A stretch of 53,482 nucleotides of DNA from Acidiferrobacterales bacterium (GCA_036446455.1 JAZFSZ010000111.1:1-53482); one strand, 5' to 3'. Numbered from the stretch's first letter, positions 16,870-53,482 are shown. Translations and numbers: made by a program. Notes: generated by a model not told the origin, from the sequence alone.

Positions 16870-16893
16870 TCGACTCTGGTCCTGAGTTTTGAT

Positions 16894-18426: not shown

Positions 18427-18580
18427 CGAAAATCGTCATTTTATGTAGGAAAAATATTTCCTGTGAAACCAGGTAAAGAATATTAGTTATAGTTGGAAAA
18501 ATAATACGTGCCAGAGAACAATTATTTCTAATATTGGAGAAAGAACGATAAATGGTCAGCGCCCTTTGCAGGAACTCATT

Positions 18581-30047: not shown

Positions 30048-30049
30048 CC

Positions 30050-31255: not shown

Positions 31256-31264
31256 AGGTGGACA

Positions 31265-32713: not shown

Positions 32714-32735
32714 TTCCAGAGGAAATCCCGACAAA

Positions 32736-33905: not shown

Positions 33906-34774
33906 GTGTACTGGTGAACAAAGATACGCGCGTAATCTGTCAAGGCTTTACCGGCAAGCAGGGCACATTCCATTCCGAACAGGCCATTGCCTATGGCACC
34001 AACATGGTTGGCGGTGTTACACCCGGAAAAGGTGGAAGCACACACCTTGAATTGCCCGTGTTCAATACAGTAGAGGATGCCATAAATGAGACTGGTGCCG
34101 AAGCGACTGTCATTTATGTTCCGGCACCATTCTGCAAGGACGCCATACTCGAGGCCGTCGATGCCGGGATACAATTAATCGTTTGTATCACCGAAGGTAT
34201 TCCCACGCTTGATATGTTACAGGCGGTGGAAATCGTCAAGGCCAATGGTGCCCGTCTCATTGGCCCGAATTGTCCTGGCATTATTACACCCGGTGAGTGC
34301 AAAATTGGCATCATGCCCGGTGAGATTCATCAACCCGGCAGTGTCGGTATCGTTTCCCGCTCCGGCACACTTACGTATGAAGCCGTAAAACAAACAACTG
34401 ATTTGGGTCTTGGACAAACAACCTGCATTGGTATCGGTGGCGATCCCATACCGGGTACCAACTTTATCGATTGTCTTGAGTTGTTCCAGAACGATGCCAA
34501 AACCGAATCTATATTAATGGTTGGCGAAATTGGCGGTACGGCCGAAGAAGAGGCGGCGGAATATATTAAATCCAATGTCACCAAACCGGTGGCGGCCTAT
34601 ATCGCCGGCGTCACTGCACCAAAAGGCAAACGTATGGGCCATGCCGGTGCCATCATCGCCGGGGGCAAAGGCACGGCCGATGACAAATTCGCCGCACTGG
34701 AAGCCGCCGGTGTAGTCACCGCGCGTTCACCCGCCGGTCTGGGTGAGGCCATGAAAAAGGCGATCGAGGCATGA
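33902..34774 (+). CDS. sucD: Succinyl-CoA synthetase alpha subunit
   Basis: [17 protein letters not shown] and RMGHAGA motifs. Confidence 0.98.
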
Positions 34775-35415
34775 GTTGCTGTTGCCCCGAGGCACGCAGT
34801 GCCGGTAAGTTCTTTTCCTTGTTCGCGCGCAATTACCGCAAGCGCTATGCGAAAAAAGGTTTTGAGACGTCGCAAAAGCTACTTGTCGAAGGCCTGCGTC
34901 AGGCCGGGTTTCAGAACGCCAGCCTGCTGGAAATCGGCAGTGGTGTGGGCTATCTGCACCAGACCTTGATTGAAGATGGTGCCGCCAGTGCGGTCGGCAT
35001 TGACCTGTCTCACCGGATGATCACTGAAGCCGAAGCAGGCGCTGCAGAGAAGGGCCTTTCCGATCGCATTCGCTATATTCTGGATGATTTCGTTAGCATG
35101 GAAGAGGTGCTGGAACCGGTTGATATTACGATACTGGATAAAGTTATCTGCTGTTATCCCGATGCAGATGGACTTGTGCATAAATCCCTCGAGCGTACAC
35201 GTCGTGTTTACGCATTGATCTACCCCAGGGATCGCTGGTTTATGAGGGCTGGATCAAGATTTATGGCCGGGGTATTTTTCCTGCTGAGAGTTCAGTTTCG
35301 CAGCTATATTCATGATCCAAAGATGATTGAGGCATGGATTACAAATGCAGGTTTTGGCAAGAAATACGAGAATCAGACGATTGCCTGGTTAACGCAGGTT
35401 TATGTCCGCGCGTAA
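34771..35415 (+). CDS. Class I SAM-dependent methyltransferase
   Basis: [14 protein letters not shown] and DKVICCYPD motifs; ATGA overlap with sucD. Confidence 0.85.
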
Positions 35416-35667
35416 TCTGATGTGCCCGATTACCGGCACTGTGCCAGCGCCAGCGCAGATAAAGTTGCCATTTTCTCCCAGAAAGACCAGTGGAAGCGTT
35501 GATATTCTCCAACGGCACAGAATAGCCGATAACGCGTCGGCACAGTCATATGCCGGCCTGAAATTGAGCCATATACTACTGATCTGAATACCCGTCAGCC
35601 TGCAAGAGAAGCGGTAGCGGGTTTGAGTCTATCTTCTATTCGGGTGAACGCCCGACGGGGTACATTC

Positions 35668-36210
35668 ATGGTAAAGCTATTCGGTCGAGTTCTGATGGTG
35701 CTGTTCGCTCTAAACACATTTACTTACGCACAAAATAGTCCGTCTGGACGGCCTTCAGAAGAAAAGGAATTCAGAAGCCTTGATGAGCAAGTACAGGGCC
35801 TCAAGGAAGAGGTTATCAAAATTAACCGCGAGCTGTTGCTGCTGCAGGAAAAATTGCTGTTTCCGTCAAGTAGCCAGATTTCGGTATTTATTTCCCTGAA
35901 GAGCAGTACGAAATTCAGTCTTGATGCTATCGAGTTGAAGCTTGATAACCGGCCGATTCAGAAATATATCTATACGTTCCGTGAACTGGAAGCCCTGCAC
36001 AAGCGTGGTGTACATCGACTCTATACCGGTAACCTTGCCGTGGGCAAGCATCAACTGGTTGTCACGATCAGTGGCCGCACTTCAGGTAACAATACTTATA
36101 CACGTCACGCATCCTTCGTGCTGGAGAAGGCAATTGGGCCCAAGCTGGTCGAACTACGAGTTATAAGCAGTAACGGGGGACAGCCAACTATCAAGATCAG
36201 GGAATGGTAG
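35668..36210 (+). CDS. Secreted coiled-coil plus beta-sandwich hypothetical protein (first gene of the Agl/Glt-like cluster)
   Basis: Signal peptide; coiled coil SLDEQVQGLKEEVIKINRELLLL; beta-rich C-terminus (LYTGNLAVGKHQLVV). Confidence 0.75.
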   Translation: MVKLFGRVLMVLFALNTFTYAQNSPSGRPSEEKEFRSLDEQVQGLKEEVIKINRELLLLQEKLLFPSSSQISVFISLKSSTKFSLDAIELKLDNRPIQKYIYTFRELEALHKRGVHRLYTGNLAVGKHQLVVTISGRTSGNNTYTRHASFVLEKAIGPKLVELRVISSNGGQPTIKIREW

Positions 36211-36251
36211 GAACAACGAAGCGTACTTCATCCCGATAGGCATCTATCCTC

Positions 36252-38225
36252 ATGTGCAGCAGCCATCAATTAAATCGTCACAATCAATTACGCATATTGT
36301 GCGGTGCGATTGCTCTATTACTGAGCATTGTTGTTGCGAGCTTTTATCCCGTAACCGTTGGTGCGGCAGACAAAAAGATCAAAGGAAATGTTCGAGACCT
36401 GTTCTTTGGTGAAGCGTTGTTTTATGCGGAACAGAATAATCATTTTGCTGCGGTCACGCGTCTTGATGCAGAACTGGCACAACATTATTCCCTGGATGAT
36501 CCGAAGAGTGACTCGCTGAGTTATCACAAAGAAGAGTCAGAATTATTAGTTGCAGATATTGAGTTGTCCTATCGCATGCATCGTAAGGTGGGCCGTGCCA
36601 TGCAACGGTTGCTCGATCATAGTGTGCACCGGTCAATACGAGATCGTGCAGCGTATCGTCTCGCACGAGTCGCCTATACCAAGTCTTCCTACGGCGCGGC
36701 GCTTGAGAATCTGCAGCAGATAAGCTCTGCGGCGCCACGAAAACTGCAACTGCAGGCAGCTTTGCTTCGTGGCCAGTGTTTGATTGCACTGGGACGGCAT
36801 AAAGAGGCGGTCGCAGCGCTACAGCCTGTGTACAACGAACCAGCCCTGGCAGGTTTTGCGCCGTATAATTACGGCATTGCCCTGATTGGTTCCGGTGAAA
36901 TCGTTTCCGGATTCCGGTTACTGGACAAGGTCGGGGTACAGACGTCGCAAGATCGGGTTCAGGGCGCACTACGGGACAAAGCCAATCTGATCCTGGGCTT
37001 TACCCTGTTAAACGCCAGGAAAGCAGCAAAAGCGCGCACCTACTTTGAGCGCGTTCAGTTACAGGGGCCATTTTCCAACAAGGCATTGTTATGGGTAGGT
37101 TGGAGTGATGCTGCGCAAAATGATTACGAGCAGGCCCTTGTTCCCTGGATGATGTTGCGGAAACGGGACATCAGCGATAGTGCGGTACAGGAAGCAATGT
37201 TGGCGGCGCCCTACGGTTTTGGCCAACTCAAGGCGTACGGTCGGTCTGCCGTACTCTATGGCGAAGCGGTCAACAAATTTAATCATGCAATTGATCGAAT
37301 TGATGATTCTGTTCGAAGTATTCGAGAAGGTAAATTACTGCAAGCCATGTTGCGAGACGAGGCCAGAACAAACGAACAATGGTTGTTCGCGCTGCGCAAG
37401 CTGCCGGGTGCCCCGGAGACACGATACATGCGCGAGCTGATGGCAGGGCATGCATTCAATGAATCGTACCGCAATTTCCGCGATCTTCACGATCTTGGCG
37501 ATAATATTGATCACTGGCGTGCTGAAATACCTGCCTATCGTGACCTTTTGCGTGTGCGACGAAACTATTATGCCCCACTGCTTCCAGATATTGAGCACAC
37601 CTGGCAGCGGTTTGATCGGCGGCTCGGGAAGATAGCAACTCGACACACCGAGATTGCATCAAAAATCAAGATACTGTTACGCAAGCGCGACCCTATGGCG
37701 CTGGCGACAGCAAAAGAAAAGCGTATGTTGCGTCAACTGAAACGGATTCAATCGCAGATTCTTCGCGTTGGAGATCAAAAGGGAGTCAGAATGCTGAGGG
37801 AGAAACACCAGCGCCTGACGGGTTTGCTCCACTGGCAAATTAATACCAAATACGAAAATCGCTTGTCTCTGGCACACCAGCACCTGCGGCAACTGGGCCA
37901 GGCGATTGGAAATACCAGAAAAACACTGACCATGTTGGCGCGCACCAAATCGGAGGCAGCGCTAAGTTATCAGGGCTACAATCGCGCGCTGACTGATCTT
38001 GAAGCTCGCCTGGACTACCTGAAAATAAAAATCACGGGTTTGAAATCACATCAGGGCCAATATATGGAACGGCGCGCCATTAGTGAGCTGCATCGTCGAA
38101 AGCAGCGCTTGCAGCGCTATCGCACCAAGGCGCGCTTTGCGTTGGCGGAAAGTTATGACTATGCGTTACGCAGTCAAAAGAATAAAGAGCTAGAGAAGAC
38201 TGAATCAAGTGAAAGGCGAAAGTAA
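36252..38225 (+). CDS. Periplasmic TPR and coiled-coil protein (GltC-like by position)
   Basis: Signal peptide; TPR helices (AAYRLARVAY, YNYGIAL, ALLWVGW); long C-terminal coiled coils. Confidence 0.8.
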   Translation: MCSSHQLNRHNQLRILCGAIALLLSIVVASFYPVTVGAADKKIKGNVRDLFFGEALFYAEQNNHFAAVTRLDAELAQHYSLDDPKSDSLSYHKEESELLVADIELSYRMHRKVGRAMQRLLDHSVHRSIRDRAAYRLARVAYTKSSYGAALENLQQISSAAPRKLQLQAALLRGQCLIALGRHKEAVAALQPVYNEPALAGFAPYNYGIALIGSGEIVSGFRLLDKVGVQTSQDRVQGALRDKANLILGFTLLNARKAAKARTYFERVQLQGPFSNKALLWVGWSDAAQNDYEQALVPWMMLRKRDISDSAVQEAMLAAPYGFGQLKAYGRSAVLYGEAVNKFNHAIDRIDDSVRSIREGKLLQAMLRDEARTNEQWLFALRKLPGAPETRYMRELMAGHAFNESYRNFRDLHDLGDNIDHWRAEIPAYRDLLRVRRNYYAPLLPDIEHTWQRFDRRLGKIATRHTEIASKIKILLRKRDPMALATAKEKRMLRQLKRIQSQILRVGDQKGVRMLREKHQRLTGLLHWQINTKYENRLSLAHQHLRQLGQAIGNTRKTLTMLARTKSEAALSYQGYNRALTDLEARLDYLKIKITGLKSHQGQYMERRAISELHRRKQRLQRYRTKARFALAESYDYALRSQKNKELEKTESSERRK

Positions 38226-38226
38226 A

Positions 38227-41214
38227 ATGAGTCGAATCAAATCGGTGACAGGTTTGTTTGTCGCACTGGTGCTGTTGCACGGTTGTACCAGTGGCAGTAG
38301 CTCATGGCAGTCAGGAGGCAGCATCGGCAGCCTTAAGGGCAAGAAAATCGTTGTCGAAGAGGAGCGCATTGAAGGCGGGCTGGAAAAGGCGATTGCTGGA
38401 TACAAACAGTTTCTCGAGCAAACACCGGAAGCAGAAATGACACCCCAAGCGCTTAGACGTCTGGCCGATCTCAAGATTCAATTGGTTGAAAACGTCTATT
38501 TTGATACCGCTCAACTACCTGTTAGTGCCGTACCAGGGCAGACTAAAGTCACTTCACTGATTGACAAGAAGCCGCCGGATGTGAAATCGAAGAAAAAGGC
38601 GGAATCGATACAATCCATCGAAAAACGAAGCGCTGCAACACCTGCGGATTCATTGGCATCAAATCAGCTCGGCCTGCTCCCGTCGGGTAACAGAATGGAG
38701 CAACAGGTGTTACAAGACGATGCCAACTCCAGGGAAGCCATCTCCATTTACCGGAAATTACTTAATAAATACCCTGACTACGACAAAAACGATCAGGTGT
38801 TGTATCAATTGGCGCGGGCTTATGGTATCCGCGGCCAGCAGGACCAGGCCATGAAAACACTGGACCGCATCATCAGAAAATACCCCTATACGTCGTTAAT
38901 CGACGAAGTACAGTTTCGTCGCGGTGAAGTGCTGTTTGTACACAGGAAATACCGGGCGTCGGAGCATGCGTATCGCGTCGTCCTCAACACCGGTCGCCGA
39001 TCCAGATTCTACGATCAGTCCCTGTACAAACATGGCTGGTCACTTTTCAAGCAAAGCCGTTACGAGGAAGGTCTTGGTTCTTTTATAAAGCTTATCGATA
39101 GAAAGGCCGCTGGTGGACGTGCGGCGGTAGAAAACTTCGGTACCATTGAACGCCAGCGGTTTGACGATACCTTGCGTGTAATAAGTTTCAGTTTTTCCTA
39201 TCTTGGTGGTTCCGAAGCGATTGACGGGTACTTTCAAAAGCGCGGTCGGCGCCCCTACGAGGAGATGCTATTCGCGGACCTGGGGGAGCACTATCTGCTC
39301 AAGCGGCGCTACACCGATGCAGCAAAAACCTATGCCGCATTCGTTGAACGCAACCCACTGCACGAACAGGCTCCCGTGTTCCAGATACGCGTGATTGACG
39401 TATATAAAAAAGGAGGGTTCCCAAGGCTCGTCATCGATGCCAAACGTGAGCATGCGCGCATTTACGCACTCGACAGCAATTACTGGAAAAACCACGATAT
39501 CAATCGTTCCCCCAAGGCGCTTGCCTTTATCAAACAAAACCTGATCGAACTGGCCAGTCATTTTCATGCCCTGTCACAAAAACGACGTGGACCAAACCAT
39601 CACAAGGAAGCAATTGTCTGGTATCGGAAGTATCTCGAATCTTTCCCCGAAGACAGCCAGGCACCGAAAATGAACTTCCTGATGGCTGAGCTCTTGTTCG
39701 ACAATCGAACTTTTTCTGTCGCAGCAGTGGAGTATGAGAAAACGGCTTACCAGTATCCTCAACACGAAAAATCGGGCGAGGCTGGATATGCGGCTGTGTT
39801 GGCGCACCGGGCGCATGCGCGGCAAGCTGGAAAAGAGGAAAAAGCCGCTATTGCGCAACGCGCCATTCTCAGTTCGATTCGCTTCGTGGATACGTATCCA
39901 AAGCACAAACAGGCAGCAGGTGTACTGAATCAAGCGGCAGTAGACAAGTTTAAACGTAATGAATTCGCGGAATCCCGGAAACTGTCGCAGCGCGTGATTG
40001 ATCAGTATCCGGGAGCCAGCCCAAAGATATTGCGATCTGCATGGACCGTGGTTGCACATTCCGCATTCGATATGGCAGATTTTCCAGATTCCGAGAAGGC
40101 CTACCAGGAAGCGCTTAAGCATTTATCAAAACAATCCAACGATCGCCATGCATTGACCGAGCGCCTGGCAGCGGCGATCTATAAACAGGGTGAGGCCCAT
40201 CAAAAGTCCGGGCAGTTGCGCGTGGCAGTGAAGAATTATTTGCGTGTGGGGCAGTTGGCGCCAGCCTCAAAAATACGCATGGCGGCCGATTACGATGCCG
40301 GTGCCGTTCTGATCACGCTGAAAGACTGGAATCAGGCCGCACGCATATTTGAAGCCTACCGCAATCGGTATCGCAGGAATCCACACCAGGCCGATGTGAC
40401 AGAAAAGCTTGCAGTTGCCTATGAGAAAAACCACCAATGGCAGTTGGCGGCTATCGAGTTTGATCGAATTCGTGTGTCAACCGCAGAGCCCAAATTGCGC
40501 CGTGAGGCGACTTACCGGGCAGCGGAGCTGTACGAGCGTGCTAACAATAATCGTGCTGCTATTGTGTCCTACCTGCAATTTATCAAGAGTTACCCCCGAC
40601 CCATCAGTCAATCGATAGAAGCCAGGGACCGTCTGGCGAATTTGTACAAGAAGACCAACAATCGCCGTCAATATGAGGCTGTGTTACGCCAAATAGTACA
40701 AGTGGATAAGCGGGCGGGTGGCAAGCGCACGGATCGCGTTCGTTATCTGGCAGCAATGGCGACACTTGAGTTGTCGGAACCTCTGGTGCGTCAGTACAAA
40801 AAAATACGTCTGACGCTTCCACTTAAAAGAAGCATGGCCAGAAAAAAACGGTCCATGGAAAAATCATTGAAAGTATTTTCTGCCATGCTGGATTACGGTG
40901 TGGCAGATGTTACGGTCGCGGCAACTTATCGAATTGCGGATATCTACTACAATCTCACGCAGTCAATCCTGGAATCCGATCGGCCACGAAACCTGAGTAA
41001 GCTGGAACTGGAACAATACGATATCCTGCTAGAGGAGCAAGCCTACCCGTTTGAAGAAAAGTCAATTTCGCTGCACAAAAAAAATATCGAGTTGCTCAGG
41101 CGTGGCATCTATAACGAATGGATCGACAGGAGTATTAACCAGCTCGGGGAACTGCTACCCATTCAATACGCCAAGACGGAGGTCGGTGAAGCTTATGTTG
41201 TATCAAGCCGATAA
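38227..41214 (+). CDS. Large TPR lipoprotein (GltD-like)
   Basis: Lipobox LHGC at Cys20; many TPRs (DQVLYQLARAY, EVQFRRGE, SLYKHGWSLFK); C-terminal YDILLEEQAYPFEEK. Confidence 0.82.
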   Translation: MSRIKSVTGLFVALVLLHGCTSGSSSWQSGGSIGSLKGKKIVVEEERIEGGLEKAIAGYKQFLEQTPEAEMTPQALRRLADLKIQLVENVYFDTAQLPVSAVPGQTKVTSLIDKKPPDVKSKKKAESIQSIEKRSAATPADSLASNQLGLLPSGNRMEQQVLQDDANSREAISIYRKLLNKYPDYDKNDQVLYQLARAYGIRGQQDQAMKTLDRIIRKYPYTSLIDEVQFRRGEVLFVHRKYRASEHAYRVVLNTGRRSRFYDQSLYKHGWSLFKQSRYEEGLGSFIKLIDRKAAGGRAAVENFGTIERQRFDDTLRVISFSFSYLGGSEAIDGYFQKRGRRPYEEMLFADLGEHYLLKRRYTDAAKTYAAFVERNPLHEQAPVFQIRVIDVYKKGGFPRLVIDAKREHARIYALDSNYWKNHDINRSPKALAFIKQNLIELASHFHALSQKRRGPNHHKEAIVWYRKYLESFPEDSQAPKMNFLMAELLFDNRTFSVAAVEYEKTAYQYPQHEKSGEAGYAAVLAHRAHARQAGKEEKAAIAQRAILSSIRFVDTYPKHKQAAGVLNQAAVDKFKRNEFAESRKLSQRVIDQYPGASPKILRSAWTVVAHSAFDMADFPDSEKAYQEALKHLSKQSNDRHALTERLAAAIYKQGEAHQKSGQLRVAVKNYLRVGQLAPASKIRMAADYDAGAVLITLKDWNQAARIFEAYRNRYRRNPHQADVTEKLAVAYEKNHQWQLAAIEFDRIRVSTAEPKLRREATYRAAELYERANNNRAAIVSYLQFIKSYPRPISQSIEARDRLANLYKKTNNRRQYEAVLRQIVQVDKRAGGKRTDRVRYLAAMATLELSEPLVRQYKKIRLTLPLKRSMARKKRSMEKSLKVFSAMLDYGVADVTVAATYRIADIYYNLTQSILESDRPRNLSKLELEQYDILLEEQAYPFEEKSISLHKKNIELLRRGIYNEWIDRSINQLGELLPIQYAKTEVGEAYVVSSR

Positions 41215-41229
41215 CTGGTGGGAGGTGGA

Positions 41230-41856
41230 ATGATAAATGGCCCCATAACCAAATGGCATTTCCGTTACAATTTCATTGCTAAATCGATGGCGGGTTTGAT
41301 GTTGATGGTGTTGTTGGCTGCTTGTGCCAGCACAGCAACACCGGTTCCCGGAAAGGTGACACCCCGGGTCGAATTCAATCAAGTAGCTTATAAGGCCGCG
41401 CTTGAGCTAATGAAGCAGAAAAAGTATTCCGATGCGGTTGTTTCGCTGGAAACGATTATTCGCGACAGCGAGAGGCGGGCCGGGCCCTATATTAATCTGG
41501 GTATCGCTTATAAGGAAATGGGAAGGTTTGATGTTTCCAAAAAAGCTTTCCTGACTGCAACGCAGATTGATCCGAAAAGCGCCATTTCCTTTAATGAACT
41601 GGGGCTGGTCTACAGAAAGCTGGGTGAATTCGCCAGCGCGAAGAAAGCTTATATGGAAAGTATTAATAATAAATCCGGATACAGTCTTCCCTACCGCAAT
41701 CTGGGAATATTGTGTGATATCTATTTGCAAGATCTGCAATGTGCAATCCGGAACTATAAAAAATATCGGAGTCTTACCGGTAAGGAGGATAAAAAGGTAG
41801 GGTTGTGGATCGTAGATCTGAAAAGGCGCATGGACAAAAAGTCCAGGGGGAAATAG
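41230..41856 (+). CDS. TPR lipoprotein (GltE-like by position)
   Basis: GGAGG RBS; lipobox LAAC; TPRs PYINLGIAY, SFNELGLVY and PYRNLGILCDIY. Confidence 0.82.
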   Translation: MINGPITKWHFRYNFIAKSMAGLMLMVLLAACASTATPVPGKVTPRVEFNQVAYKAALELMKQKKYSDAVVSLETIIRDSERRAGPYINLGIAYKEMGRFDVSKKAFLTATQIDPKSAISFNELGLVYRKLGEFASAKKAYMESINNKSGYSLPYRNLGILCDIYLQDLQCAIRNYKKYRSLTGKEDKKVGLWIVDLKRRMDKKSRGK

Positions 41857-41858
41857 AC

Positions 41859-42131
41859 GTGAGATTTTATACGGTATCAACAGTTTTCGCGGCTTTGTTA
41901 CTGGCGTTACCGGCAGGGGCGGCGGGTTCTAAAGAGAAAGTAGTGGAAGTTGGCGGCATGTCGATTATCGGTAACCGCGAGTTGCCAAAGGCCCTGTATA
42001 TCGTTCCGTGGAAGGATTCAGATGTTGATTCCGAAATAGACCTTTCGCAAGATTTGTTAAACGAAAAAATGAAAGTGGTCGATCAGGAAGAGTTCGTGCG
42101 GCAATTGAATTATTATGATTTAAGTAAATAG
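41859..42131 (+). CDS. Small secreted protein (GltF/CglF-like by size and position)
   Basis: GTG start; signal peptide ending PAGA; GMSIIGNRELPKALYIVPWK motif. Confidence 0.7.
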   Translation: MRFYTVSTVFAALLLALPAGAAGSKEKVVEVGGMSIIGNRELPKALYIVPWKDSDVDSEIDLSQDLLNEKMKVVDQEEFVRQLNYYDLSK

Positions 42132-42200
42132 TTTGCTGGTAGACAGCCGGTTTGTAGACGTAAGTCATTAAGTTAGCAGAGTATACAAGAGGAGCACACC

Positions 42201-42842
42201 ATGGAGTTCATCTATTCCCTTATACGATTTTTCCAGACGGGGGGTGCATTTATGTATCCCATTCTGGCGGTTTTGGCATTCGGTATTGCCATCGCTATTG
42301 AACGCTACATCGCCATTTCGAAGGCGCGCCGCGAAAGCATATTGGTCTGGGAGCAGGTTCAGCCCATGCTGGAGCACGGGCGATTCGAGGAGGCCCTGGC
42401 CTATACCGAGGAATCGGATACACCCGTGAGTAAAATTCTGAATCTGGGGCTCGCGCGCCAGGGAAGTGTACGGCGACGGGATGATATCGAAATCGCCATG
42501 GAAGAGGGCATGATGGAGGTAATACCGATTCTCGAGAAGCGTACACACTATCTGGCGTTGTTTGCCAACATTTCCACTTTGTTGGGTCTGCTGGGCACGA
42601 TTATGGGCTTGATCGCGGCCTTCACTGCAGTTGCCGGAGCCAACCCGGCAGAAAAGGCCGATTTATTATCCGCCAGTATTTCCGTTGCCATGAATACCAC
42701 TGCATTCGGGCTCATGGCTGGTATCCCCTTGTTGCTGTTTCATGCGGTGATATCCACCAAGACTTCAGAGGTTGTGGACAACCTGGAGATGGCGTCTGTG
42801 AAAACGCTTAATCTGATTGGTGAAGTCGGAAAGAAAGGATAG
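42201..42842 (+). CDS. MotA/TolQ/ExbB proton channel subunit (AglR-like)
   Basis: GGAFMYPIL, IERY, STLLGLLGTIMGLI and ISVAMNTTAFGL motifs; GAGGAG RBS. Confidence 0.93.
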   Translation: MEFIYSLIRFFQTGGAFMYPILAVLAFGIAIAIERYIAISKARRESILVWEQVQPMLEHGRFEEALAYTEESDTPVSKILNLGLARQGSVRRRDDIEIAMEEGMMEVIPILEKRTHYLALFANISTLLGLLGTIMGLIAAFTAVAGANPAEKADLLSASISVAMNTTAFGLMAGIPLLLFHAVISTKTSEVVDNLEMASVKTLNLIGEVGKKG

Positions 42843-42845
42843 AAG

Positions 42846-43349
42846 ATGGCACGACGCAAACATTATGGCCGTGACAAGGAACCGCCGGAACTGAATATCA
42901 CCTCGTTCATGAATCTGATGGTGGTACTGGTGCCGTTCCTGCTGATATCTGCTGTATTTTCCCAGGTCACTATTCTGCAGCTGAACTTGCCTTCGGTTGC
43001 CGCCTTGAGTGAGGCCGACAAGAAAAAAATCAGGATTGAAGTGGTCGTCCGGGAAAATAGAATTGAGATTGGTGACGGACGCAGGCTGATAAAGCGAATT
43101 CGTAATACGAACAAGGGCTATAACGTCAAGGAAATGTCCAAAGTATTGATGGCGATCAAAAAGAGATACCCAGGGAAGAGAGACGCCATCATCTTGCTGG
43201 AACCCGATATCCAATATGCGGTGCTGGTGAAATTGATGGACGCGATAGGAACGGCCGAGGTTATTCAGGGACTGGACGTACAGAGAATAGAGTTGTTCCC
43301 ACAGATTTCTATTGGTGATGCGCCATCCAGTAAAAGGCGCAAAAGGTAG
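42846..43349 (+). CDS. ExbD/TolR family subunit 1 (AglQ-like; Asn in place of the TM Asp)
   Basis: ELNITSFMNLMVVLVPFLL TM segment; C-terminal IQYAVLVKLMDA. Confidence 0.88.
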   Translation: MARRKHYGRDKEPPELNITSFMNLMVVLVPFLLISAVFSQVTILQLNLPSVAALSEADKKKIRIEVVVRENRIEIGDGRRLIKRIRNTNKGYNVKEMSKVLMAIKKRYPGKRDAIILLEPDIQYAVLVKLMDAIGTAEVIQGLDVQRIELFPQISIGDAPSSKRRKR

Positions 43350-43355
43350 CGGGCG

Positions 43356-43874
43356 ATGAAAGAAACACGTCGCATGAAAAGAATGGGCCGCGCCCAGCAA
43401 CGCGCCAAACGTACGCCGGGTTTCAACCTGGTGGCGCTCATGGATATTTTTACCATCCTGGTATTTTTTCTGTTGACCAACTCAGCCCAGACACAGGACT
43501 TACCCAGTCCCGATCAGGTTATATTGCCCGAATCGATTTCCGAGATAAAGCCGGAAGAAACGGTTGTGGTGTTGGTAACTGAAACCCAGGTGCTAGTGCA
43601 GGGAAAACTGGTTGCCCTGCGCGCAGAGATCGTTGAGAGGAATTTATCCTTTGTACCGGCGGTGCGCGATGAATTGGGGCGCATTATGCAGAGCACGACA
43701 GGCATTCGTACAAGACAAAATTCTGCCAGAAAGGAGGTCACGATCATGGGCGATCGTGCGATTCCTTTTAAATTGCTTAAAAAGATCATGACCTCCTGCA
43801 CTCTTGCTGGTTATCAAACTATTAACCTGGCTGTCGTCCAGAAAGCATCTCAGTTCAAGAAAGAATCCCCCTGA
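43356..43874 (+). CDS. ExbD/TolR family subunit 2 (AglS-like)
   Basis: FNLVALMDIFTILVFFLL TM segment with Asp30; VTIMGDRAIPFKLLKKIM...AGY. Confidence 0.9.
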   Translation: MKETRRMKRMGRAQQRAKRTPGFNLVALMDIFTILVFFLLTNSAQTQDLPSPDQVILPESISEIKPEETVVVLVTETQVLVQGKLVALRAEIVERNLSFVPAVRDELGRIMQSTTGIRTRQNSARKEVTIMGDRAIPFKLLKKIMTSCTLAGYQTINLAVVQKASQFKKESP

Positions 43875-45232
43875 TGGTGACATCTGGAGTCGAAAAAATA
43901 GAGAACGTGCTGCTAGAAGCCAGGGAGAAACTGCAGCAGGCGGATCGTCGGGTGCGTGAGCTCGACACAACATTGCGAGATTATGATGATCAGCAATCCC
44001 GCGTTGAGGTTCTGTCCAGGTTGCAGGAGGCATTGCATGAACTCCGGGGTGTTGGTGGCAGCGATCCTTTTTCAGGTAATGCGCTAAAAAAGAATTCATA
44101 CGAAGAAGCGCTGGTTCGTATCCAGCGGGAATCGGATGAATATCGTAAAGCAGTCGGTAAACTCAAAGATGAACTGAAAAAAGCACGCGCACAGGTCATC
44201 CAGGCAGTACAGGATTACGATCAACTACGTGCGAAATTCGAAGCACAAGAAAAGAAAACGCGCCGCCAGGCTCTGGAGGCCTACCGGCGCGAAGTCAGAG
44301 AAAAAGGATTCCAGGCACGGAAAGGCGACGTTTTTTATCGTTCCATGTCGTTGCCCTGGGGAGGAAGCACCGAAGAGGATCGTCGACTGCGACGGGTATC
44401 AACACTGGTTCTTTTGTTCAGCTTGTTGCTGGGTATCGGTATTGGAACGCTGGTGTTACCCGAGGTAGAAACCAAAGAAGTTGAATTACCAGCACGGATG
44501 GCGATGCTGCTGCAGGAAAGGCAAAAAAAGTTGCAGCCAGTAGAAGTCCCGCAGGAGCAAAAGATAGACAAGAAGGATCTCGCAGCGCGCAAGAAGGCCC
44601 CGGAGCCCAAAACCCGGAAGCAACAGCGCGCGCGTGACAGAGCGAAACAAAGCGGACTATTGGCGCTCAGCGATACTTTCGAAAGCCTCAAGCAAAACGC
44701 GTTTGAAGACAAGCTGGGTAAGCAGGCCAATATCGCTACGGCCGGCAGGCAGGCATCGAATCTACAGCGTTCAATTGTTACTGCGCGCGCTGAGACCGGT
44801 AGCGGTGGCATCGTAACATCGAGTTTGAGTCGCGGCACTGGTGGCAGTACGCTTTCCGGGCGCAGTACCAGTCGCGTAAGCAGTGGTCTGGCCGATTCCC
44901 TCGCCGCGAGTGCGGATCGTCGTATCGTCGGCTCGGGCAAGGCATCACGTACTGATGAGGAAATTCAAATCGTTTTTGATCGCAACAAGAGCGCACTCTA
45001 TCGTCTTTACAATCGCGCGCTGCGCAAGGATCCAACGCTACAAGGCAAGATTGTTCTGAAACTAACCATTGCGCCGTCAGGTCAGGTAACAATGTGCAAG
45101 GTGATCTCCAGCAGCCTTAAGGCGCCGGTCCTGGAACGCAAGATTGCGCAACGCGTGAAGTTATTCAATTTTGGCAGGAAAAAAGTCAACGCAGTCACCA
45201 TTACCTATCCTATTGATTTCCTGCCTGCCTAG
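43874..45232 (+). CDS. TonB-like energy transducer with AgmX/PglI C-terminal domain (GltG-like)
   Basis: Cytoplasmic coiled coil, single TM, charged and Gly/Ser-rich linker; C-terminal EEIQIVFDRNKSALYRLYNRALRKDPTLQGKIVLKLTIAPSGQV...ITYPIDF. Confidence 0.85.
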   Translation: MVTSGVEKIENVLLEAREKLQQADRRVRELDTTLRDYDDQQSRVEVLSRLQEALHELRGVGGSDPFSGNALKKNSYEEALVRIQRESDEYRKAVGKLKDELKKARAQVIQAVQDYDQLRAKFEAQEKKTRRQALEAYRREVREKGFQARKGDVFYRSMSLPWGGSTEEDRRLRRVSTLVLLFSLLLGIGIGTLVLPEVETKEVELPARMAMLLQERQKKLQPVEVPQEQKIDKKDLAARKKAPEPKTRKQQRARDRAKQSGLLALSDTFESLKQNAFEDKLGKQANIATAGRQASNLQRSIVTARAETGSGGIVTSSLSRGTGGSTLSGRSTSRVSSGLADSLAASADRRIVGSGKASRTDEEIQIVFDRNKSALYRLYNRALRKDPTLQGKIVLKLTIAPSGQVTMCKVISSSLKAPVLERKIAQRVKLFNFGRKKVNAVTITYPIDFLPA

Positions 45233-45558
45233 ATTGGTCTGCAACACAGAAGTTAGTCCTGACCGACTGCCAGTCACTGACATTGTTCCTGACAGCACTG
45301 CGGAACCGACGGTAGAAAATACCAGACAAAAGGTGTGTAAAGGTACGGACTCCTTCTGTTCGCCGGACGATTCAGGCGTCGCGTCGGATAATGTGCATAT
45401 GCTGCTGACGCAGAACCTATAATCCTAATATATTGATCCAGGGGTTAATGCGTACTTGCTATTGGTAAAGCGGGGTCGGGAAAGCGCTGAATTAGTAAAA
45501 AAATGGCGTTCTCAAGTAGCTCATTAGAGCCAATTATAGAAAAAGAAGGCAGACTTCC

Positions 45559-48500
45559 ATGTGCCTTCTTTCCGGTGCATGGATCATTTTCGGTATGAGT
45601 GCATGGAGCCAGATTGTGCCGCGAATCCGGGGTTATCTCAGAGTAATTCTAACGCTAGGCTTTATGCTTGGCTTCGGTTTATTACTGCCTGCCGCGACGG
45701 CGTTGGCATCACATCCGAATTGCACTGACGATCCCTCCACTTTCAATATTATTTCACACGATTTTGCCGCCAGTTATTGTGAGCTGTGTGGTATCGGCGA
45801 GATTCACATCATTGTTACCAATGACACCGCCCAGCCATTCACAAACGTTACCATTACCGAAGACCTTGGTGCATCCGGTCTCGAATATATTGCGGGCACC
45901 ACGACCTTCAACGGCTCCGCAACGGGTGATCCATCGATAACAGGTTCTGTTTTGACCTGGACACCTGCCGAAATGCCTGAGCTGGCCTCACTCGATAAGG
46001 CACAGAATCACAATACTCCAAGAACCTACGAAATTGTATTTCAGGTAAGAAGCATTACCGGGACCGAAGAAGGTCTCGTGTCAGCCAGCAGGTTAATCGA
46101 AGCCACCGTGTCATTTGATTACGAACGATGCAATTCAACCCTGTACCCGAGAACAACGGATAGCACCGGGCAAGAACTACTGCCGCTGCGCGAACCCGTG
46201 CCGAGCGTTACCAAGGCCGGACGTAATGTGGATGCGGCGCAAGGCGGTTATTCCGATCCGGTTTATGGCAACACCAATGACGACATTATCTGGCAGATAG
46301 AAATCGGCAACGGTGGCCTGGCGGCCATGCAGGATCTTAAATTCAATGATCTGATGACCGCCGGCAATATGTCGGTGAATTATGCCTGCCCAACAGAAGG
46401 TACAGCATTGGCCGTGGCCAACAACAACGGTGCGCTTCCGGGCGGCAGCCCCTGTGTTGTGGCCAGCAATTCAATCACAGATTTTGCAGTGGATGATCCC
46501 TTTGGTAATCCGGGCAATGACGAACCGGGCGCTTTCGTGGATGTGCCCGCGGGTGGCGTGGCGCGTGTTTACCTCGTCGGCAAGATAACAAGCTCCTGTA
46601 ATAATCAGACCAACACCGCCTCCGGCATTGAATGGGGTTGCGAAGTAAATAGCCCCGATGGGGGTATCACAAATACGTCGACGGGTGCGTCACCCGGTAC
46701 CGCGTCTGCAACGTTGGAAACGCTGGTGACTAATAGCGGACTGCAGATTCAGCGCCAGATCACCGGTACCAATACCGCGCAACCGGTGGGCACCAAAGGC
46801 ACCATTACCATTACCATTACTAACAACACCGGCGGTACCGTAAAAAACATTCAGCTTAATGATGTATTGCCCACCGGCCCGACATATTACGTCGTCGATT
46901 CAACTTTCACGCCGACGATTGCGGTGACCCCTCTATTCGGTGCTTACGCGGGTATGACAGACACCATCACCTGGACCAACCAGAATATCGACCCGCTACT
47001 GAATACGTCACCCACTTTTATACTGACCAGCAGTACCACCCACGCAAACTACGCAGACCAGTTTAATATGTTACGCAATGGCGATGAGTTGGTGGTGACT
47101 TTCCGAATTGTCATGGTCAATTCAGATTTCTATGACAAACAGGCCGATCTGGATATTCGCGAAGAAGCCGCCGGTGTCGACGATCCGATTAACATGCCGA
47201 CGTTAACCAATCAACTTTATGTCACGTTCGAGCAGTTTTGTAGTCCGGGCACCATTCAACAGGCGTCCAGTTACCCCTTCAACGACAATTTCACGCCTTC
47301 GCCGGAAGACATTGATATCGATATCTCGGGCGCCGCGCTAATATTTATTCTGACTAACGATCCTGCGCAGCCGCTACCCCTGCGTGTACAGCTAACCAAT
47401 AGCGGTGGTCATGATGCAGATGATCATTTTACCTATGTCAGCTTTGGCGAAACCATGACTATCGTGACGGCGCCGGGCAGTTGTACCGTGACCAGCAATC
47501 CACCACCACGCCCGGTGTGGAATCTCCCGGCTCCGGTACCAGCGACGGCGACGATTTATGAATGTACCAGTGGTGTGATCGCGCCGGGTGCGACACGCAA
47601 TCTTGATTTCGAAGTGATTAAGAATCTTGCTTCAACGGCAGATGATCTGACCTTCCGCGCCGATGTGGTGGCTGAGGTCAGGCTGAGTGACGGCACGCCA
47701 CTGACATACCCGGTGCCGTCCGACCCAATTGGCAGCACAGTTAACAATTATTCGCTCGATGGAATTCGCGCACGCGTGCTTGGTTTTAACTTACAGAAAT
47801 CACAAGTCGGTGTCTGTACCGAAAACAATCCACCGCCTTCTTCTCCAGACACCAATGTACAAATTGGCGAGCAGTGCACTTTTCATATCGACACCGGTGG
47901 CTGGTTCGGATTCCAGACACCGGGCTTTACTTATATCGCTGTGCAGAACATCCAGGTGGTTGATGAGCTGCCGGACGGCCAGGGCTACATTTCTTCGACG
48001 GACCCGACGCTGACAAGCGATTCCACGGTGCTGGGTATCAGCCTCAATCCACCCGGGCTGGTAGCACCCGATGAGGGATGGATCGACTGGACGTTTAACC
48101 AGATTGTGCCGGCGGAACGCATTACGGTGAAGGATCAATGGTTCCGCGTCGACGTAACCACGCGAATACTGAATGATCCGATCGACAGCGTGGCCGCGCC
48201 CAATCAACACACCGCCACCAGCCGTAATGTACTTAATTCGTATTTCGAGGCCATATTCCGCAATGCGATGGGTGTGGAAGAAGTATTCAATCTTGGCCCC
48301 GGTACTGTGGGTTATCCCCAGGCATCGGTGCGGCGCGTTGATCTAATAGTTACCGAGCCCAGCATTTCCGTGGTCAAAGAGGTCTGTAACGAAACGCTTT
48401 ATGGCGTCGGCGCGGCCTGTAGCAACTTTGTGACGGTGGCCAGTGATGGTGACACCAATGACTCTTACGTTTACCGCATTCGCTTAACAAACCAGTCGAG

Positions 48501-51500: not shown

Positions 51501-53482
51501 CATTACCGATCAATTACCGAACACCGCACCCGGCGGCATGTGTGATACACCGCCGTCGATTTTTACTGCAGGTATTTATTTGTCCAATGGAACAACTCTC
51601 GTTACCTCGCTAGTGGAGGGAACAGATTACGTTACCAGTTTTGATCCGGCACCAACATGTACGCTGACGTTTACCATGCAATCGGCCGCGGCAGCGATCG
51701 ACGCTGGTAATCGTTTGATCGTGACTTATCAGGCCGTCGCCGATAACGACAATATACAAAGCACGCCGATGACCAACATTGCCGGGGCCACTCTCTGGTA
51801 CAGTCTTGATACCGCCGGGTCCGGCGCGACAGGAGAAACGCGCACCTATACGCGCACGCTTACAGACGGTACACCCGGCGTGCTCGACCATGAGGATGCG
51901 CTGACGGTAAACAGTGAGGTCCCGGTCCTCGAGTTTCGCAAAACCGTAATCAATGTAAATACGGGACAAAATCCTGGTGCCAATGCCTCGCCCGGCGACA
52001 CCCTGCGCTACCAGATCACCGTGCGCAATATAAGCAGCATAACCTTGAACAATTTCACATTCACCGACGAGGTCGACCGGCTTTCCGGCGGCAGTGCCGT
52101 ATTTTCCCCGGGAACCCTGAACATAATTGCAATCCCGGCCGGTGCGGATAGCAGTAACAGTGATGTCAATGGCGGCACTCTGGGTACCGGCCTGCTGGAT
52201 GTGCGCAACCTGAATCTGGATGCCGCGGGTGGCAGCAATGACAGTCTGGTCATTGAATTCGAAATAACACTGGTGCCAGTGATAGCCAATGGCACGGTAG
52301 TATTGAATCAGTCGCAAATATTTATTACCGATTACACCACCCTGGACAGTGACGATCCCAATGTAAACGGCGCCGATGACCCTGTTGTTCTCGGCGATGA
52401 AGATCCCACAACAACCCTGATCGGATCGGCGCCGGTCATGCAGGTACAAAAGGTGTCGCAGGATTTGACGGGTGATCCCGCCGTGCTGGAGCCTGGCGAT
52501 ACCCTGCGTTACACCATCACGATCAAGAATATTGGTACTGAAAACGCCGTGAATACGACACTGCGCGATCAGATACCTGCGAACACAACTTATGTCGCCA
52601 ACGGCACCACCTTGAACGGGGTTGCGGTGGCCGACCCCGCGCCCGGTGTCAGCGTTTTACAAGACGGCATGCTCATTAATGCTCCGGAGAATATAACGCC
52701 GGGCTTTATGCGTGCCGATACCGACCCGACGGCCGATAATGTGGCTATCGTGATCTTTGATGTCACCATCAACAGCAATGTGATCAATGGCACTATCATC
52801 TCCAACCAGGGATTCGTGAATGGCAGCGGAACCAGTGGTGGTGCCTTCCCCGAACAGCCGTCAGACGATCCTGCAACTCCGGTGGCCAATGATCCAACGT
52901 TAGATATTGTCGGCAACCTGCCGTTGGTGGATTCACAGAAGACGGTGCAGATATTTATTGATAATGGAACGCCCGGCATTCTCGATCCTGGTGACACCCT
53001 GCGCTACACCATCACGGTCACTAACTTTGGTGCACAGCCGGCGACCGGTGTTGTGCTCACGGATGCTGTGCCGGCCAATACCACCTATGTTGCTGACTCG
53101 GTTGTTCTCAACGGACTGCCGGTGGGTCAACCCGATGGTGGTGTATCACCGCTGATCGTTGGCGTGGATGTCAGTTCTTCCGACCTGACACCGCCATTAC
53201 CGACTGCCGGTAACGGCACGTTGTCGGTGGGCGGTACCGCAACCCTTATCTTCGACGTGCAAGTCAACGGTGGCACGCCTTCGGGTACCGTTATTAGCAA
53301 TCAGGGTACGGTCACCAGTATTGAGCAGGCCCCTGAGCCTACCGATGCCGATGGCAATGACAGTAATGGTGACCAACCAACACAGATTGTCGTTGGCAGT
53401 GCCCAGCAGCTGACGATCACAAAATCAGTGTCTGTTGTCGGTGGTGGCGTTGCCGTTGCAGGCGGTGAGCTGGAATACGTGG
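45559..53482 (+). CDS. Giant secreted DUF11 / isopeptide-domain repeat surface protein (>2640 aa, truncated by window end)
   Basis: Not in the ORF track because no stop falls in the window. In-frame stop at 45517, then ATG 45559 (or 45595). Signal peptide ...GFGLLLPAATALA. About 16 repeats such as LTKS...GDVLTVTVTATNTG...AYNLRVMD and PGDTLRYTITVTNFG...VLTDAVP. The same frame still reads as repeat sequence at 53482. Confidence 0.9.
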   Translation, partial: MCLLSGAWIIFGMSAWSQIVPRIRGYLRVILTLGFMLGFGLLLPAATALASHPNCTDDPSTFNIISHDFAASYCELCGIGEIHIIVTNDTAQPFTNVTITEDLGASGLEYIAGTTTFNGSATGDPSITGSVLTWTPAEMPELASLDKAQNHNTPRTYEIVFQVRSITGTEEGLVSASRLIEATVSFDYERCNSTLYPRTTDSTGQELLPLREPVPSVTKAGRNVDAAQGGYSDPVYGNTNDDIIWQIEIGNGGLAAMQDLKFNDLMTAGNMSVNYACPTEGTALAVANNNGALPGGSPCVVASNSITDFAVDDPFGNPGNDEPGAFVDVPAGGVARVYLVGKITSSCNNQTNTASGIEWGCEVNSPDGGITNTSTGASPGTASATLETLVTNSGLQIQRQITGTNTAQPVGTKGTITITITNNTGGTVKNIQLNDVLPTGPTYYVVDSTFTPTIAVTPLFGAYAGMTDTITWTNQNIDPLLNTSPTFILTSSTTHANYADQFNMLRNGDELVVTFRIVMVNSDFYDKQADLDIREEAAGVDDPINMPTLTNQLYVTFEQFCSPGTIQQASSYPFNDNFTPSPEDIDIDISGAALIFILTNDPAQPLPLRVQLTNSGGHDADDHFTYVSFGETMTIVTAPGSCTVTSNPPPRPVWNLPAPVPATATIYECTSGVIAPGATRNLDFEVIKNLASTADDLTFRADVVAEVRLSDGTPLTYPVPSDPIGSTVNNYSLDGIRARVLGFNLQKSQVGVCTENNPPPSSPDTNVQIGEQCTFHIDTGGWFGFQTPGFTYIAVQNIQVVDELPDGQGYISSTDPTLTSDSTVLGISLNPPGLVAPDEGWIDWTFNQIVPAERITVKDQWFRVDVTTRILNDPIDSVAAPNQHTATSRNVLNSYFEAIFRNAMGVEEVFNLGPGTVGYPQASVRRVDLIVTEPSISVVKEVCNETLYGVGAACSNFVTVASDGDTNDSYVYRIRLTNQSSSGGVTRAPAYNIISTDVLDSSDLMLIAPFGSDGLDNDGDGLVDGADADEGSISDNIIGNATPAEITFSHAHSAPLLRVDPGSTVTFYYRVDPDDAIAPLQLLTNTVTMIYDSLDGDFGNQTAPLRPNSDIAGARVYTTTAVQATVQILPLITQPKAILALSNTAVGGPPQPVTIGEEVQYQLTTEIPVSRLRNFVIRDELPAGVRCIEAPAINLGTGVYASAGFVPGGTITPTCTSTGSNDYVEWSFGDQELTTATGTRFTFPVSFIARVENTVVTNDTDDISNGTPATNATVSYVDEANNTVTLNFASNNAVVSEPQIALTKSFSAASTDAGDVLTVTVTATNTGTATAYNLRVMDNLVGTKLTFLNSVSGTDPPDTIDTITLGANSPIFSWNATNPDYAIAPGASISFTFTVSVDIDVEPQEVLSNTLQASWQSLPDQNTALNSSGSIGADGSTLGMRNGAIPNAGDAINDYETTVTATITVLPASIGKTHLNDTYIAGADVRIGDIVEYELRLTLPEGTTTSIVLSDVLPQGLQYESTVSVNGDTTAPYTSSPPFTYSNFAGAVVVGDATTGSTTVTWDLGQVINAGDNNAGNNDIVIIYRARVLNLVHPQVNNIALTNTVSLDYIAGGAPAPTQTAGETINVVQPNLTVSKSAAPAGGDTVIDANEIVTYTVDIQNTGTAPAYDVVLQDVIPVGLRNGVATITVTSMTLVNGPTVLPNLAPTYDAGTGVAVWNFDTGTANQYTIPVGDTLRLVYQVQADADLGAAFVMTNQAQVQNYYSFDDEAVPSLGGINGVREIYGVSNTASITLTSVAPNPLSKQNPAVLNVTIGETFAYRITVPNTPQPVALHDVVIVDDLSASAADLLFVGVSRVSGSQFWTPVNTGTASSLVIADTANGIDIPAGEQIQIDITVTVADTATNVAGLQFNNTASYLFNQVNDNVATQLAGGADTTANMTIVEPDTLTLEKSGPAQAQFGIPATFTLNVQNTGTSTAWDLTITDQLPNTAPGGMCDTPPSIFTAGIYLSNGTTLVTSLVEGTDYVTSFDPAPTCTLTFTMQSAAAAIDAGNRLIVTYQAVADNDNIQSTPMTNIAGATLWYSLDTAGSGATGETRTYTRTLTDGTPGVLDHEDALTVNSEVPVLEFRKTVINVNTGQNPGANASPGDTLRYQITVRNISSITLNNFTFTDEVDRLSGGSAVFSPGTLNIIAIPAGADSSNSDVNGGTLGTGLLDVRNLNLDAAGGSNDSLVIEFEITLVPVIANGTVVLNQSQIFITDYTTLDSDDPNVNGADDPVVLGDEDPTTTLIGSAPVMQVQKVSQDLTGDPAVLEPGDTLRYTITIKNIGTENAVNTTLRDQIPANTTYVANGTTLNGVAVADPAPGVSVLQDGMLINAPENITPGFMRADTDPTADNVAIVIFDVTINSNVINGTIISNQGFVNGSGTSGGAFPEQPSDDPATPVANDPTLDIVGNLPLVDSQKTVQIFIDNGTPGILDPGDTLRYTITVTNFGAQPATGVVLTDAVPANTTYVADSVVLNGLPVGQPDGGVSPLIVGVDVSSSDLTPPLPTAGNGTLSVGGTATLIFDVQVNGGTPSGTVISNQGTVTSIEQAPEPTDADGNDSNGDQPTQIVVGSAQQLTITKSVSVVGGGVAVAGGELEYV

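Follow-up and report, generated by a model that had tools for sequence, protein, structure and literature searches.

The window analysed here is a 53,482-nt contig (C111) belonging to a 2.2-Mb metagenome-assembled genome of an Acidiferrobacterales bacterium (88.7% complete). Its distal part carries nine densely packed genes (p1-p9), encoding a putative proton motor together with a set of periplasmic proteins, and, downstream of them, the beginning of a gene for a giant secreted protein that is cut by the contig end (Table 1). An initial annotation, made from the sequence alone, had described this region as an envelope machine powered by the proton motive force (PMF) and similar to the Agl/Glt system of Myxococcus, and had proposed that the motor may export, anchor or move the giant protein.

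The p1-p9 cluster and the giant gene

Open reading frames (ORFs) and profile models confirmed that the genes of the initial annotation are all present, with the predicted types and a common direction, separated by gaps of at most 66 bp or overlapping slightly (35623-45232, + strand). Relatives keep all nine genes in identical order (30-92% identity), and this recurrence indicates that the cluster is not a chance arrangement.

Table 1. Features of window C111 considered in this study (positions are those of the whole window)
Feature	Position	Strand	Description
p1	35623-36210	+	Small secreted protein, no family; first gene in most of the 25 loci of relatives
p2	36252-38225	+	Secreted TPR protein; TPR_16 (32.8 bits), TPR_21 (26.2 bits); GltC position
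p3	38209-41214	+	1001-aa TPR lipoprotein; TPR_6 (75 bits); GltD/AgmU position
p4	41218-41856	+	Small TPR lipoprotein, lipobox LLAAC; TPR_8, TPR_2, TPR_1; GltE position
p5	41805-42131	+	Small secreted protein with signal peptide; kept between p4 and p6 in relatives
p6	42201-42842	+	ExbB/TolQ/AglR-type proton channel subunit; PF01618 MotA_ExbB (85.7 bits)
p7	42846-43349	+	ExbD/TolR/AglQ-S-type subunit; PF02472 (52.8 bits)
p8	43356-43874	+	Second ExbD/TolR-type subunit; PF02472 (44.6 bits)
p9	43874-45232	+	Long-type GltG-like transducer; NF033768 AgmX/PglI C-terminal domain (70.1 bits, cut-off 40)
p9-giant spacer	45233-45558	+	326 bp
Giant, N-terminal 2641 aa	45559-53482	+	Predicted Sec-exported DUF11 (CLIPPER)/isopeptide-domain protein, runs off the contig end
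Upstream flank	27186-35415		sucA, sucB, lpd, sucC, sucD, methyltransferase
PAS-GGDEF-EAL protein	19061-21109		Cyclic di-GMP turnover; 14.5 kb upstream of the cluster

The likely start codon of p1 is the ATG at position 35668 (codon 16 of the ORF), placed just before the signal peptide; the initial annotation had begun the region at this position. Neither p1 nor p5 matched any Pfam or NCBIfam family. The p2 protein has a signal peptide and a coiled-coil region at its C-terminus, and shares 30-76% identity with its counterparts in relatives. The lipobox-like motif of p3 reads LLHGC in the window copy and LTAC in the orthologues; this gene was present in 23 of 41 related genomes. p6 is one of four MotA/ExbB genes found in the genome.

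Besides the AgmX/PglI domain, p9 contains a TonB_C match (28.3 bits). Its score with the full-length GltG model (NF033760) was 44.5 bits against a cut-off of 650, and therefore p9 is not a GltG equivalog. An alignment of 10 long-type orthologues (defined below) supported the layout of the protein, which consists of (i) a cytoplasmic coiled coil (approximately residues 1-170), (ii) one membrane helix, (iii) a charged, Ser/Gly-rich periplasmic linker, and (iv) a TonB-like C-terminal domain. A sequence search of the PDB with p9 returned a spurious coiled-coil match alone. Separately, a 233-aa ORF on a different contig of the genome (G000:C140:7787-8170) matched positions 12-136 of the GltG model (42 bits), i.e. 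the N-terminal cytoplasmic part that p9 lacks.

A cluster of this type has been described previously. The core complex of Luciano et al. 2011 (PMC3169522) comprises aglR, aglQ, aglS, gltC, gltD, gltE, gltG and one extra gene, and was found clustered in Gammaproteobacteria, one Betaproteobacterium, Geobacter and Fibrobacter; the portions of that paper considered here give its function as unknown. It shares with p1-p9 one TolQ/ExbB-like protein, two TolR/ExbD-like proteins, a GltG-like membrane protein of the TonB/TolA type, three TPR proteins at the GltC, GltD and GltE positions and an extra gene, all within a single cluster. The extra gene has no myxobacterial homologue, and p1 and p5, both lacking a family, are the candidates for it. 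Judged by sequence, p1-p9 represent the Agl/Glt core complex in its gammaproteobacterial form, with p2 and p3 matched to GltC and GltD by size and position; the assignment to the core found in non-gliding Proteobacteria, already made in the initial annotation, thus held, given the AgmX/PglI match above the cut-off and a gene content that fits the portions of PMC3169522 considered. Direct evidence of homology was confined to the motor genes and the C-terminal domain of p9, and the similarity of p4 to the GltE model (NF033758 gliding_GltE) was weak (34.8 bits, cut-off 225). The NCBIfam entries tried included no GltC or GltD model (NF033759 is TraA and NF033757 is CglB), and the CglB model gave no match in the genome of the window (E 0.1).

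Tol-Pal was considered as the identity of the cluster and rejected, in agreement with the initial annotation: the cluster contains neither TolB nor Pal, and TolB (539 bits, above the cut-off) and a TolQ-type gene are located on another contig (C94). No TonB-dependent receptor family was detected in the cluster or in the seven upstream genes scanned, nor in the outer-membrane barrel protein of relatives described below.

The spacer between p9 and the giant gene agrees with the gap of about 330 bp, devoid of an obvious terminator, that had been noted: a terminator scan listed no site within 45233-45555. A stem-loop (45556-45583) overlaps the start codon of the giant gene and a weak promoter-like site lies at 45405-45434; terminator- and promoter-like sites were no commoner than in shuffled sequence.

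The giant ORF runs through 2641 codons without a stop and reaches the final base of C111, in agreement with the secreted product of more than 2640 aa in the initial annotation. The encoded protein has a signal peptide, DUF11 domains (152 bits, 6 stretches), matches to TIGR01451 (211.8 bits) and TIGR04226 (134.4 bits), DUF7619 and DUF7507 domains, and two isopeptide-type pilin domains; its first 566 residues were DUF11-like according to a protein language model. The "repeats" of this protein are diverged protein domains, and Tandem Repeats Finder detected no DNA repeat. DUF11 has recently been renamed CLIPPER (2025, PMC12617251), and the parts of that report considered describe an isopeptide bond shown in one such domain. 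On the basis of its domain content, the giant is classified as a member of the CLIPPER/DUF11 fibrillar adhesins, and is assigned to the isopeptide type by family membership.

Complete giants were identified in contiguous relatives (G013, G015, G009 and G065), where they reach 3100-4650 aa. They end with a C-terminal module of approximately 330 aa whose identity between families is 56-64% and whose tail finishes in ...CC..LTIETEIFWRRG; at least 2382 protein clusters contain this module. The C-terminus of a relative's giant was modelled with a predicted local distance difference test score (pLDDT) of 84.8 as an Ig domain, a CnaB-like domain and a beta-alpha-beta-alpha-beta tail. The Ig folds of this model resemble pilins of Gram-positive bacteria and the CLIPPER domain solved from a Gram-negative adhesin (9ifr), which could be superposed on it with a template modelling (TM) score of 0.79 on the target and a root-mean-square deviation (rmsd) of 2.8 Å. 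At least two unrelated N-terminal head types were distinguished among the giants, with the C-terminal module conserved in both. The head type of the window protein was present in 38 of the 120 giants listed, and the second type, with the motif "VQVNC..APYNG", was found in G015. Varied heads joined to a constant C-terminal module form the pattern expected if the head binds varied targets.

Linkage between the giant and the long-type core

The p9 proteins were divided into a long type (400 aa or more, including a cytoplasmic coiled coil) and a short type (without the coiled coil). Their genetic neighbourhood was then compared in (i) 25 related loci, (ii) 103 genomes surveyed at the order level, and (iii) named genomes, in which the best 80 p9 loci were taken and 18 with less than 2 kb of downstream sequence were dropped, leaving 62 scored loci. 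Three rows of the latter survey duplicate loci of relatives (L071/L032, L072/L033 and L073/L034).

Among the 25 related loci, nine encode a long-type p9 (aligning from the N-terminus), and in eight of these a giant homologue is the next gene. None of the 12 loci with a short-type p9 (aligning only from residue ~151-160) has a giant. The remaining loci were three with p1-p3 only (two of them also with p5) and one that is truncated. The ninth long-type locus is L043, where the giant may be located on the opposite side of the core. A related locus (G101) has its core on the minus strand, whereas its giant starts on the plus strand approximately 370 bp from p1, which indicates that the adjacency outlived an inversion; the inverted but adjacent giant characterises one clade.

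The named-genome survey gave the same picture: 48 loci combined a long-type p9 with a giant, 13 had a short-type p9 without a giant, a single long-type locus lacked the giant, and the combination of a short-type p9 with a giant was not observed. The initial annotation had staked its proposal on a survey of this kind, and the proposal survived it, with a giant beside 48/49 long-type and 0/13 short-type clusters. No downstream partner was common to more than three of the 13 short-type loci compared.

At the order level, a p9 relative was detected in 48 of the 103 genomes and the long type in 19. The C-terminal module of the giant was present in 16 genomes, 13 of which also carry a long p9; the three without it are 75-83% complete. 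The long-p9 genomes lacking the module are G000, G001 and G003, in all of which the giant is interrupted by a contig end, as well as G036, G039 and G098.

A FastTree tree built on concatenated ExbB+ExbD+ExbD sequences grouped the 19 short-type rows into one clade (99% local support), so that the distribution of long and short types needs one change. Carriers of the module belong to the Microbulbiferaceae, Thiotrichaceae, Woeseiaceae, Ectothiorhodospiraceae, Gallionellales and Acidiferrobacterales. The order of the window is split among tree groups, where it stands beside other lineages, and we interpret this as joint movement of the entire block. The linkage to the giant is conserved and specific to the long-transducer subtype, and the counts reflect its retention over deep divergence, since p3 is only 37-45% identical between the groups.

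Three loci, L050 (G031:C171), L052 (G040:C173) and L055 (G015:C9), carry the scaffold only: homologues of p1, p2 and p3 are present in each of them, and p5 also in L050 and L052, with no ExbB, ExbD or p9 gene within 14 kb downstream.

The outer-membrane barrel partner

Analysis of the relatives revealed a further gene, coding for a protein of approximately 1715 aa, which follows the giant in 16/16 cases in the order (gap of 15-205 bp, 582 bp in one genome). Since the giant is cut by the end of the contig, this gene lies beyond the window and was invisible to the initial annotation. Its product combines three OmpA-family stretches (PF00691, 95 bits) with a signal peptide and a large C-terminal beta-barrel; the C-terminal ~900 aa are 59-79% identical among the homologues listed. 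The family comprises at least 3344 protein clusters; in public records the giant and barrel proteins are named "OmpA family protein", "MotB" or "DUF11 domain-containing protein".

The adjacency was also observed in an even sample of 400 Gammaproteobacteria, of which 75 have a p9 relative and nine a long-type p9 (counts that are floors, because four p9 candidates were scored per genome). In seven of the nine long-type genomes the barrel gene is located 11-18 kb downstream on the same strand, in G205 it is split over contigs, and the ninth genome is that of the window. In G361 the giant and barrel genes lie at the end of a contig, and none of its scored candidates is a long p9. In one relative (L058:1001-1966; G015:C13) the barrel gene is followed by an RHS core fragment with a Peptidase_M91-like end.

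Three of the 120 giants listed are fused in frame with the barrel protein, namely P0203 (4544 aa), P0176 (4615 aa) and P0195 (partial), and none of them has a second signal peptide between the giant tail and the barrel protein. These fusions indicate that the two proteins act together, and that the C-terminus of the giant and the OmpA-like domains reside on the same side of the outer membrane. A complex prediction for the G015 proteins (the last 140 aa of p9, barrel residues 25-740 and the 130-aa tail of the giant) gave a score of 0.00 (mark 0.32) and is evidence neither way.

A model of the C-terminal 917 aa of the barrel protein (pLDDT 71.5) contains approximately 34 long antiparallel strands from residue 283 onwards. 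The nearest solved folds are MtrB, LptD, SlpA, TonB-dependent transporters and SprA, but the similarity is only generic (TM 0.15-0.28, Z 12-14 and rmsd 10-18 Å for the transporters), and FhaC and BamA gave partial generic matches. A sequence search of the PDB returned OmpA/MotB-type matches in the N-terminal part of the protein and nothing for the barrel. Searches of Pfam and NCBIfam detected no autotransporter, Omp85, POTRA, plug or TonB-dependent receptor family in it.

These data bear on TonB-type import, in which the barrel would be an energised uptake channel and the giant a filament capturing a substrate or mineral. The TonB_C-like domain of p9 and the presence of TonB-dependent transporters and MtrB among the neighbours of the barrel model are compatible with such a role, as is the identity of the carriers: these include polysaccharide degraders (Microbulbifer) as well as Gallionellales, Thiohalomonas, Sulfurifustis and Sideroxyarcus, which we take to be sulfur or iron oxidisers. 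However, neither a plug nor a TonB-dependent receptor family was detected in the barrel protein, its transporter matches are those of a generic barrel, and the in-frame fusions fit a passenger with its anchor better than a receptor with its channel. We therefore consider import very unlikely.

The OmpA-like domains raise another question, namely whether the barrel protein is a Pal-like partner in a Tol-like tethering system, with the giant being incidental. Several peptidoglycan-binding domains in one outer-membrane protein would suit this function, and p3 scored above the cut-off of the YbgF/CpoB-type TPR model (TIGR02795; 122.7 bits, cut-off 90.1). In E. coli, tol-pal is located not far downstream of the suc operon, and the present cluster follows a suc operon in roughly the same manner, possibly by coincidence. 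However, a complete Tol-Pal system with TolB is encoded elsewhere in the genome, and the barrel gene always has the C-terminal module of the giant directly upstream (16/16), which makes tethering extremely unlikely. The methyltransferase gene that separates the suc operon from the cluster is also found upstream of the cluster in G003 (L033).

More weight has to be given to simple co-inheritance, i.e. the giant and barrel genes forming a self-sufficient, autotransporter-like cassette that resides beside the core without any functional coupling. One ancestral event may account for the linkage, short-type cores exist without a giant, distant homologues of the barrel are not found beside p9, and single-ORF paralogues combining OmpA-like domains with a related barrel occur apart from any core. 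On the other hand, the adjacency has been kept where p3 is only 37-45% identical, it outlived an inversion and holds in 48/49 long-type loci, and the tree grouping of the window's order was read as movement of the block as a unit. Moreover, the form of p9 covaries with the presence of the giant. In the light of these observations co-inheritance alone seems quite unlikely.

Six single ORFs of 1914-2435 aa that are not located beside any core complex were inspected: L151 (G031:C114), L152 (G036:C163), L153 (G015:C10), L154 (G001:C15), L155 (G009:C52) and L156 (G020:C42). They have Ig-type N-terminal parts and a barrel 23-29% identical (tblastn) to the partner barrel, and OmpA-like stretches were detected by tblastn in L153, L155 and L156. 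Three of the six adjoin an ORF of ~440-450 aa and another of ~590-607 aa. They are similar to the CLIPPER adhesin published for Acinetobacter, which has an OmpA-like anchor.

The barrel gene of G009 is followed by genes for a GGDEF/EAL-type response regulator and a sensor kinase. Together with the PAS-GGDEF-EAL gene of the window, these neighbours hint that the module may be regulated by cyclic di-GMP.

Possible role of the motor in display of the giant

The window holds genes one to ten of a module of eleven genes that spans the envelope, with gene ten interrupted by the contig end. By sequence, its core comprises an ExbB/ExbD/ExbD proton channel of the inner membrane, a TolA/TonB-like transducer (p9), and TPR scaffolds that are periplasmic proteins or lipoproteins. 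In the arrangement that we propose, the fibre would be exported by Sec; its conserved C-terminal module would stay in the periplasm, beside the peptidoglycan-bound OmpA-like domains of the barrel protein, and its stalk would thread through the barrel to the cell surface. The TPR scaffold and p9 would turn proton flow through ExbB/ExbD into mechanical work acting on the outer-membrane module, and this work would both drive the threading of the fibre outward and keep the fibre anchored. ExbB/ExbD-type channels convert proton flow into mechanical work delivered via TonB/TolA-like proteins in the published systems, as far as the accounts considered describe them. We judge the chances to be about even that the module is a PMF-powered display system for a giant adhesin, with the motor responsible for threading and anchoring. 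We favour export because three contiguous relatives, compared beyond the barrel gene, share no further genes for secretion.

The main rival is a conveyor, in which the barrel alone, or Bam, would display the fibre and the motor would then pull, rotate or laterally move the anchored fibre, so as to tension it, retract it or convey it much as in gliding, in the manner of Agl-Glt/CglB or GldLM/SprB. The nearest characterised relatives, Agl-Glt and Agl-Nfs, move surface material and are not secretion systems, according to the portions of the literature considered. The cytoplasmic domain of p9 is confined to the giant-linked subtype and would suit positioning; in the same sources, the cytoplasmic domains of GltG and GltJ are said to dock to positioning factors. 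Domains locked by isopeptide bonds would also fit a load-bearing fibre. However, a barrel protein whose OmpA-like domains bind peptidoglycan speaks for an anchor that is fixed and does not travel, and we regard a conveyor as unlikely.

Several observations weigh against a motor-driven display of the fibre. The coupling of motor and fibre was inferred from sequence comparisons; the ten listed runs matching positions 43900-47900 of the window are all DNA metagenomes, none being RNA. The putative identification of p2 and p3 as GltC and GltD rests on TPR content, size and position. The barrel model is of middling confidence (predicted TM score, pTM, 0.55) and no specific barrel family was matched; the distant homologues of the barrel that do not adjoin any p9 are 29-47% identical to it. 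Two queries did not detect the barrel gene in the genome of the window, which says little because the contig breaks inside the giant and the genome is incomplete; the family member G002 carries the gene, split over contig ends. The exceptional long-type locus of the named-genome survey (L125) has an RHS/teneurin-like gene (13580-18469, 1630 aa) in the place of the giant, and in G367 a p9 of 510 aa is not followed by a giant. Moreover, the core does not need the giant, since short-type cores work without one. As the long and short types form a single bipartition, the linkage may trace to one ancestral event, and the counts are not independent. Finally, a protein-language-model look-up grouped the tail of the giant with OmpA clusters (scores 0.89-0.90), but a comparison with the OmpA profile gave the expected register without significance (probability 0.35%, E 0.17), and the OmpA-like nature of the tail is therefore a weak lead.

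The proposed display module can be compared with several known systems. With Agl-Glt/Agl-Nfs of Myxococcus xanthus it shares a proton motor, AgmX/PglI TonB-like transducers, a TPR scaffold and an outer-membrane barrel module presenting an adhesin. In the structural model of Agl-Glt, as far as the accounts considered go, the C-terminal domain of GltG is seated on GltD, GltC holds the N-terminal strands of outer-membrane barrels, and a pull exerted by GltG/GltJ on the barrel module is proposed to expose the adhesin CglB. In contrast to the VWA lipoprotein CglB, the present adhesin is an Ig-domain fibre of 3100-4650 aa, OmpA-like domains and a single very large barrel make up the outer-membrane protein, and the coiled coil of p9 stands where the Agl-Glt transducers have FHA or GYF domains.

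The SiiAB-SiiE (Salmonella SPI4) and GldLM-SprB (Flavobacterium) systems also combine a MotAB/ExbBD-like proton channel with a giant surface adhesin. However, SiiE and SprB leave the cell by type I and type IX secretion, respectively, according to the sources considered, whereas no such genes are conserved at the present locus, and the proteins are unrelated in sequence to those described here except for the channel family. Type V secretion resembles the giant-barrel pair in having an N-terminal passenger and a C-terminal barrel, encoded by fused or adjacent genes, and in Sec-dependent export to the periplasm, but its barrels have 12 or 16 strands, as opposed to the ~34 long strands of the present model, and it needs no dedicated motor; in the present pair, moreover, peptidoglycan-binding domains are placed between passenger and barrel.

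The giants share with described CLIPPER adhesins a stalk of DUF11, DUF7507 and DUF7619 isopeptide-type domains, together with a part for anchoring that is OmpA-like. The 2129-aa Acinetobacter adhesin with an OmpA-like anchoring domain (PMC12617251) is a single protein, whereas here the anchor usually has a gene of its own and the pair is linked with a proton motor. The terms "secretion system" and "outer membrane" occur 0 times each in the main text of that report, which thus seems to treat neither a motor nor an export route.

The core complex and CLIPPER/DUF11 fibrillar adhesins are thus kinds that are already known. A literature search, to which Figure S1 and Tables S2-S3 (loci) of PMC3169522 were external, revealed no paper linking the gammaproteobacterial core to a DUF11/CLIPPER giant or to an OmpA-barrel, and the portions of PMC3169522 considered name no outer-membrane or surface partner such as the giant and barrel protein of the present subtype. 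As far as this search reaches, the following are new: (i) the joining of the core and a CLIPPER giant in a conserved module, (ii) the inclusion in this module of a very large OmpA-barrel protein of an unnamed family, and (iii) the restriction of the module to the long-transducer subtype. The interpretation put forward in the initial annotation is partly supported by our results; the outer-membrane barrel partner and the limitation of the giant link to one core subtype were not seen in it.

A broader proposal, which we put forward tentatively and consider doubtful, is that the long-type core, CLIPPER fibre and OmpA-barrel together constitute an undescribed, widespread secretion or conveyor machine, in which an inner-membrane proton motor would drive a giant adhesin through or along the outer membrane, and whose function would be ancestral to gliding and spore-coat transport in Myxococcus. 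The Agl/Glt core outside gliding bacteria has been without a known function since 2011, according to the portions of PMC3169522 considered. A conserved outer-membrane partner and a giant cargo for one of its subtypes make this open question directly testable, and experiments are possible because the same arrangement is present in cultured Microbulbifer species with complete genomes (e.g. loci L092 and L102). If the machine exists as proposed, it would count as a new secretion or conveyor system of the outer membrane.

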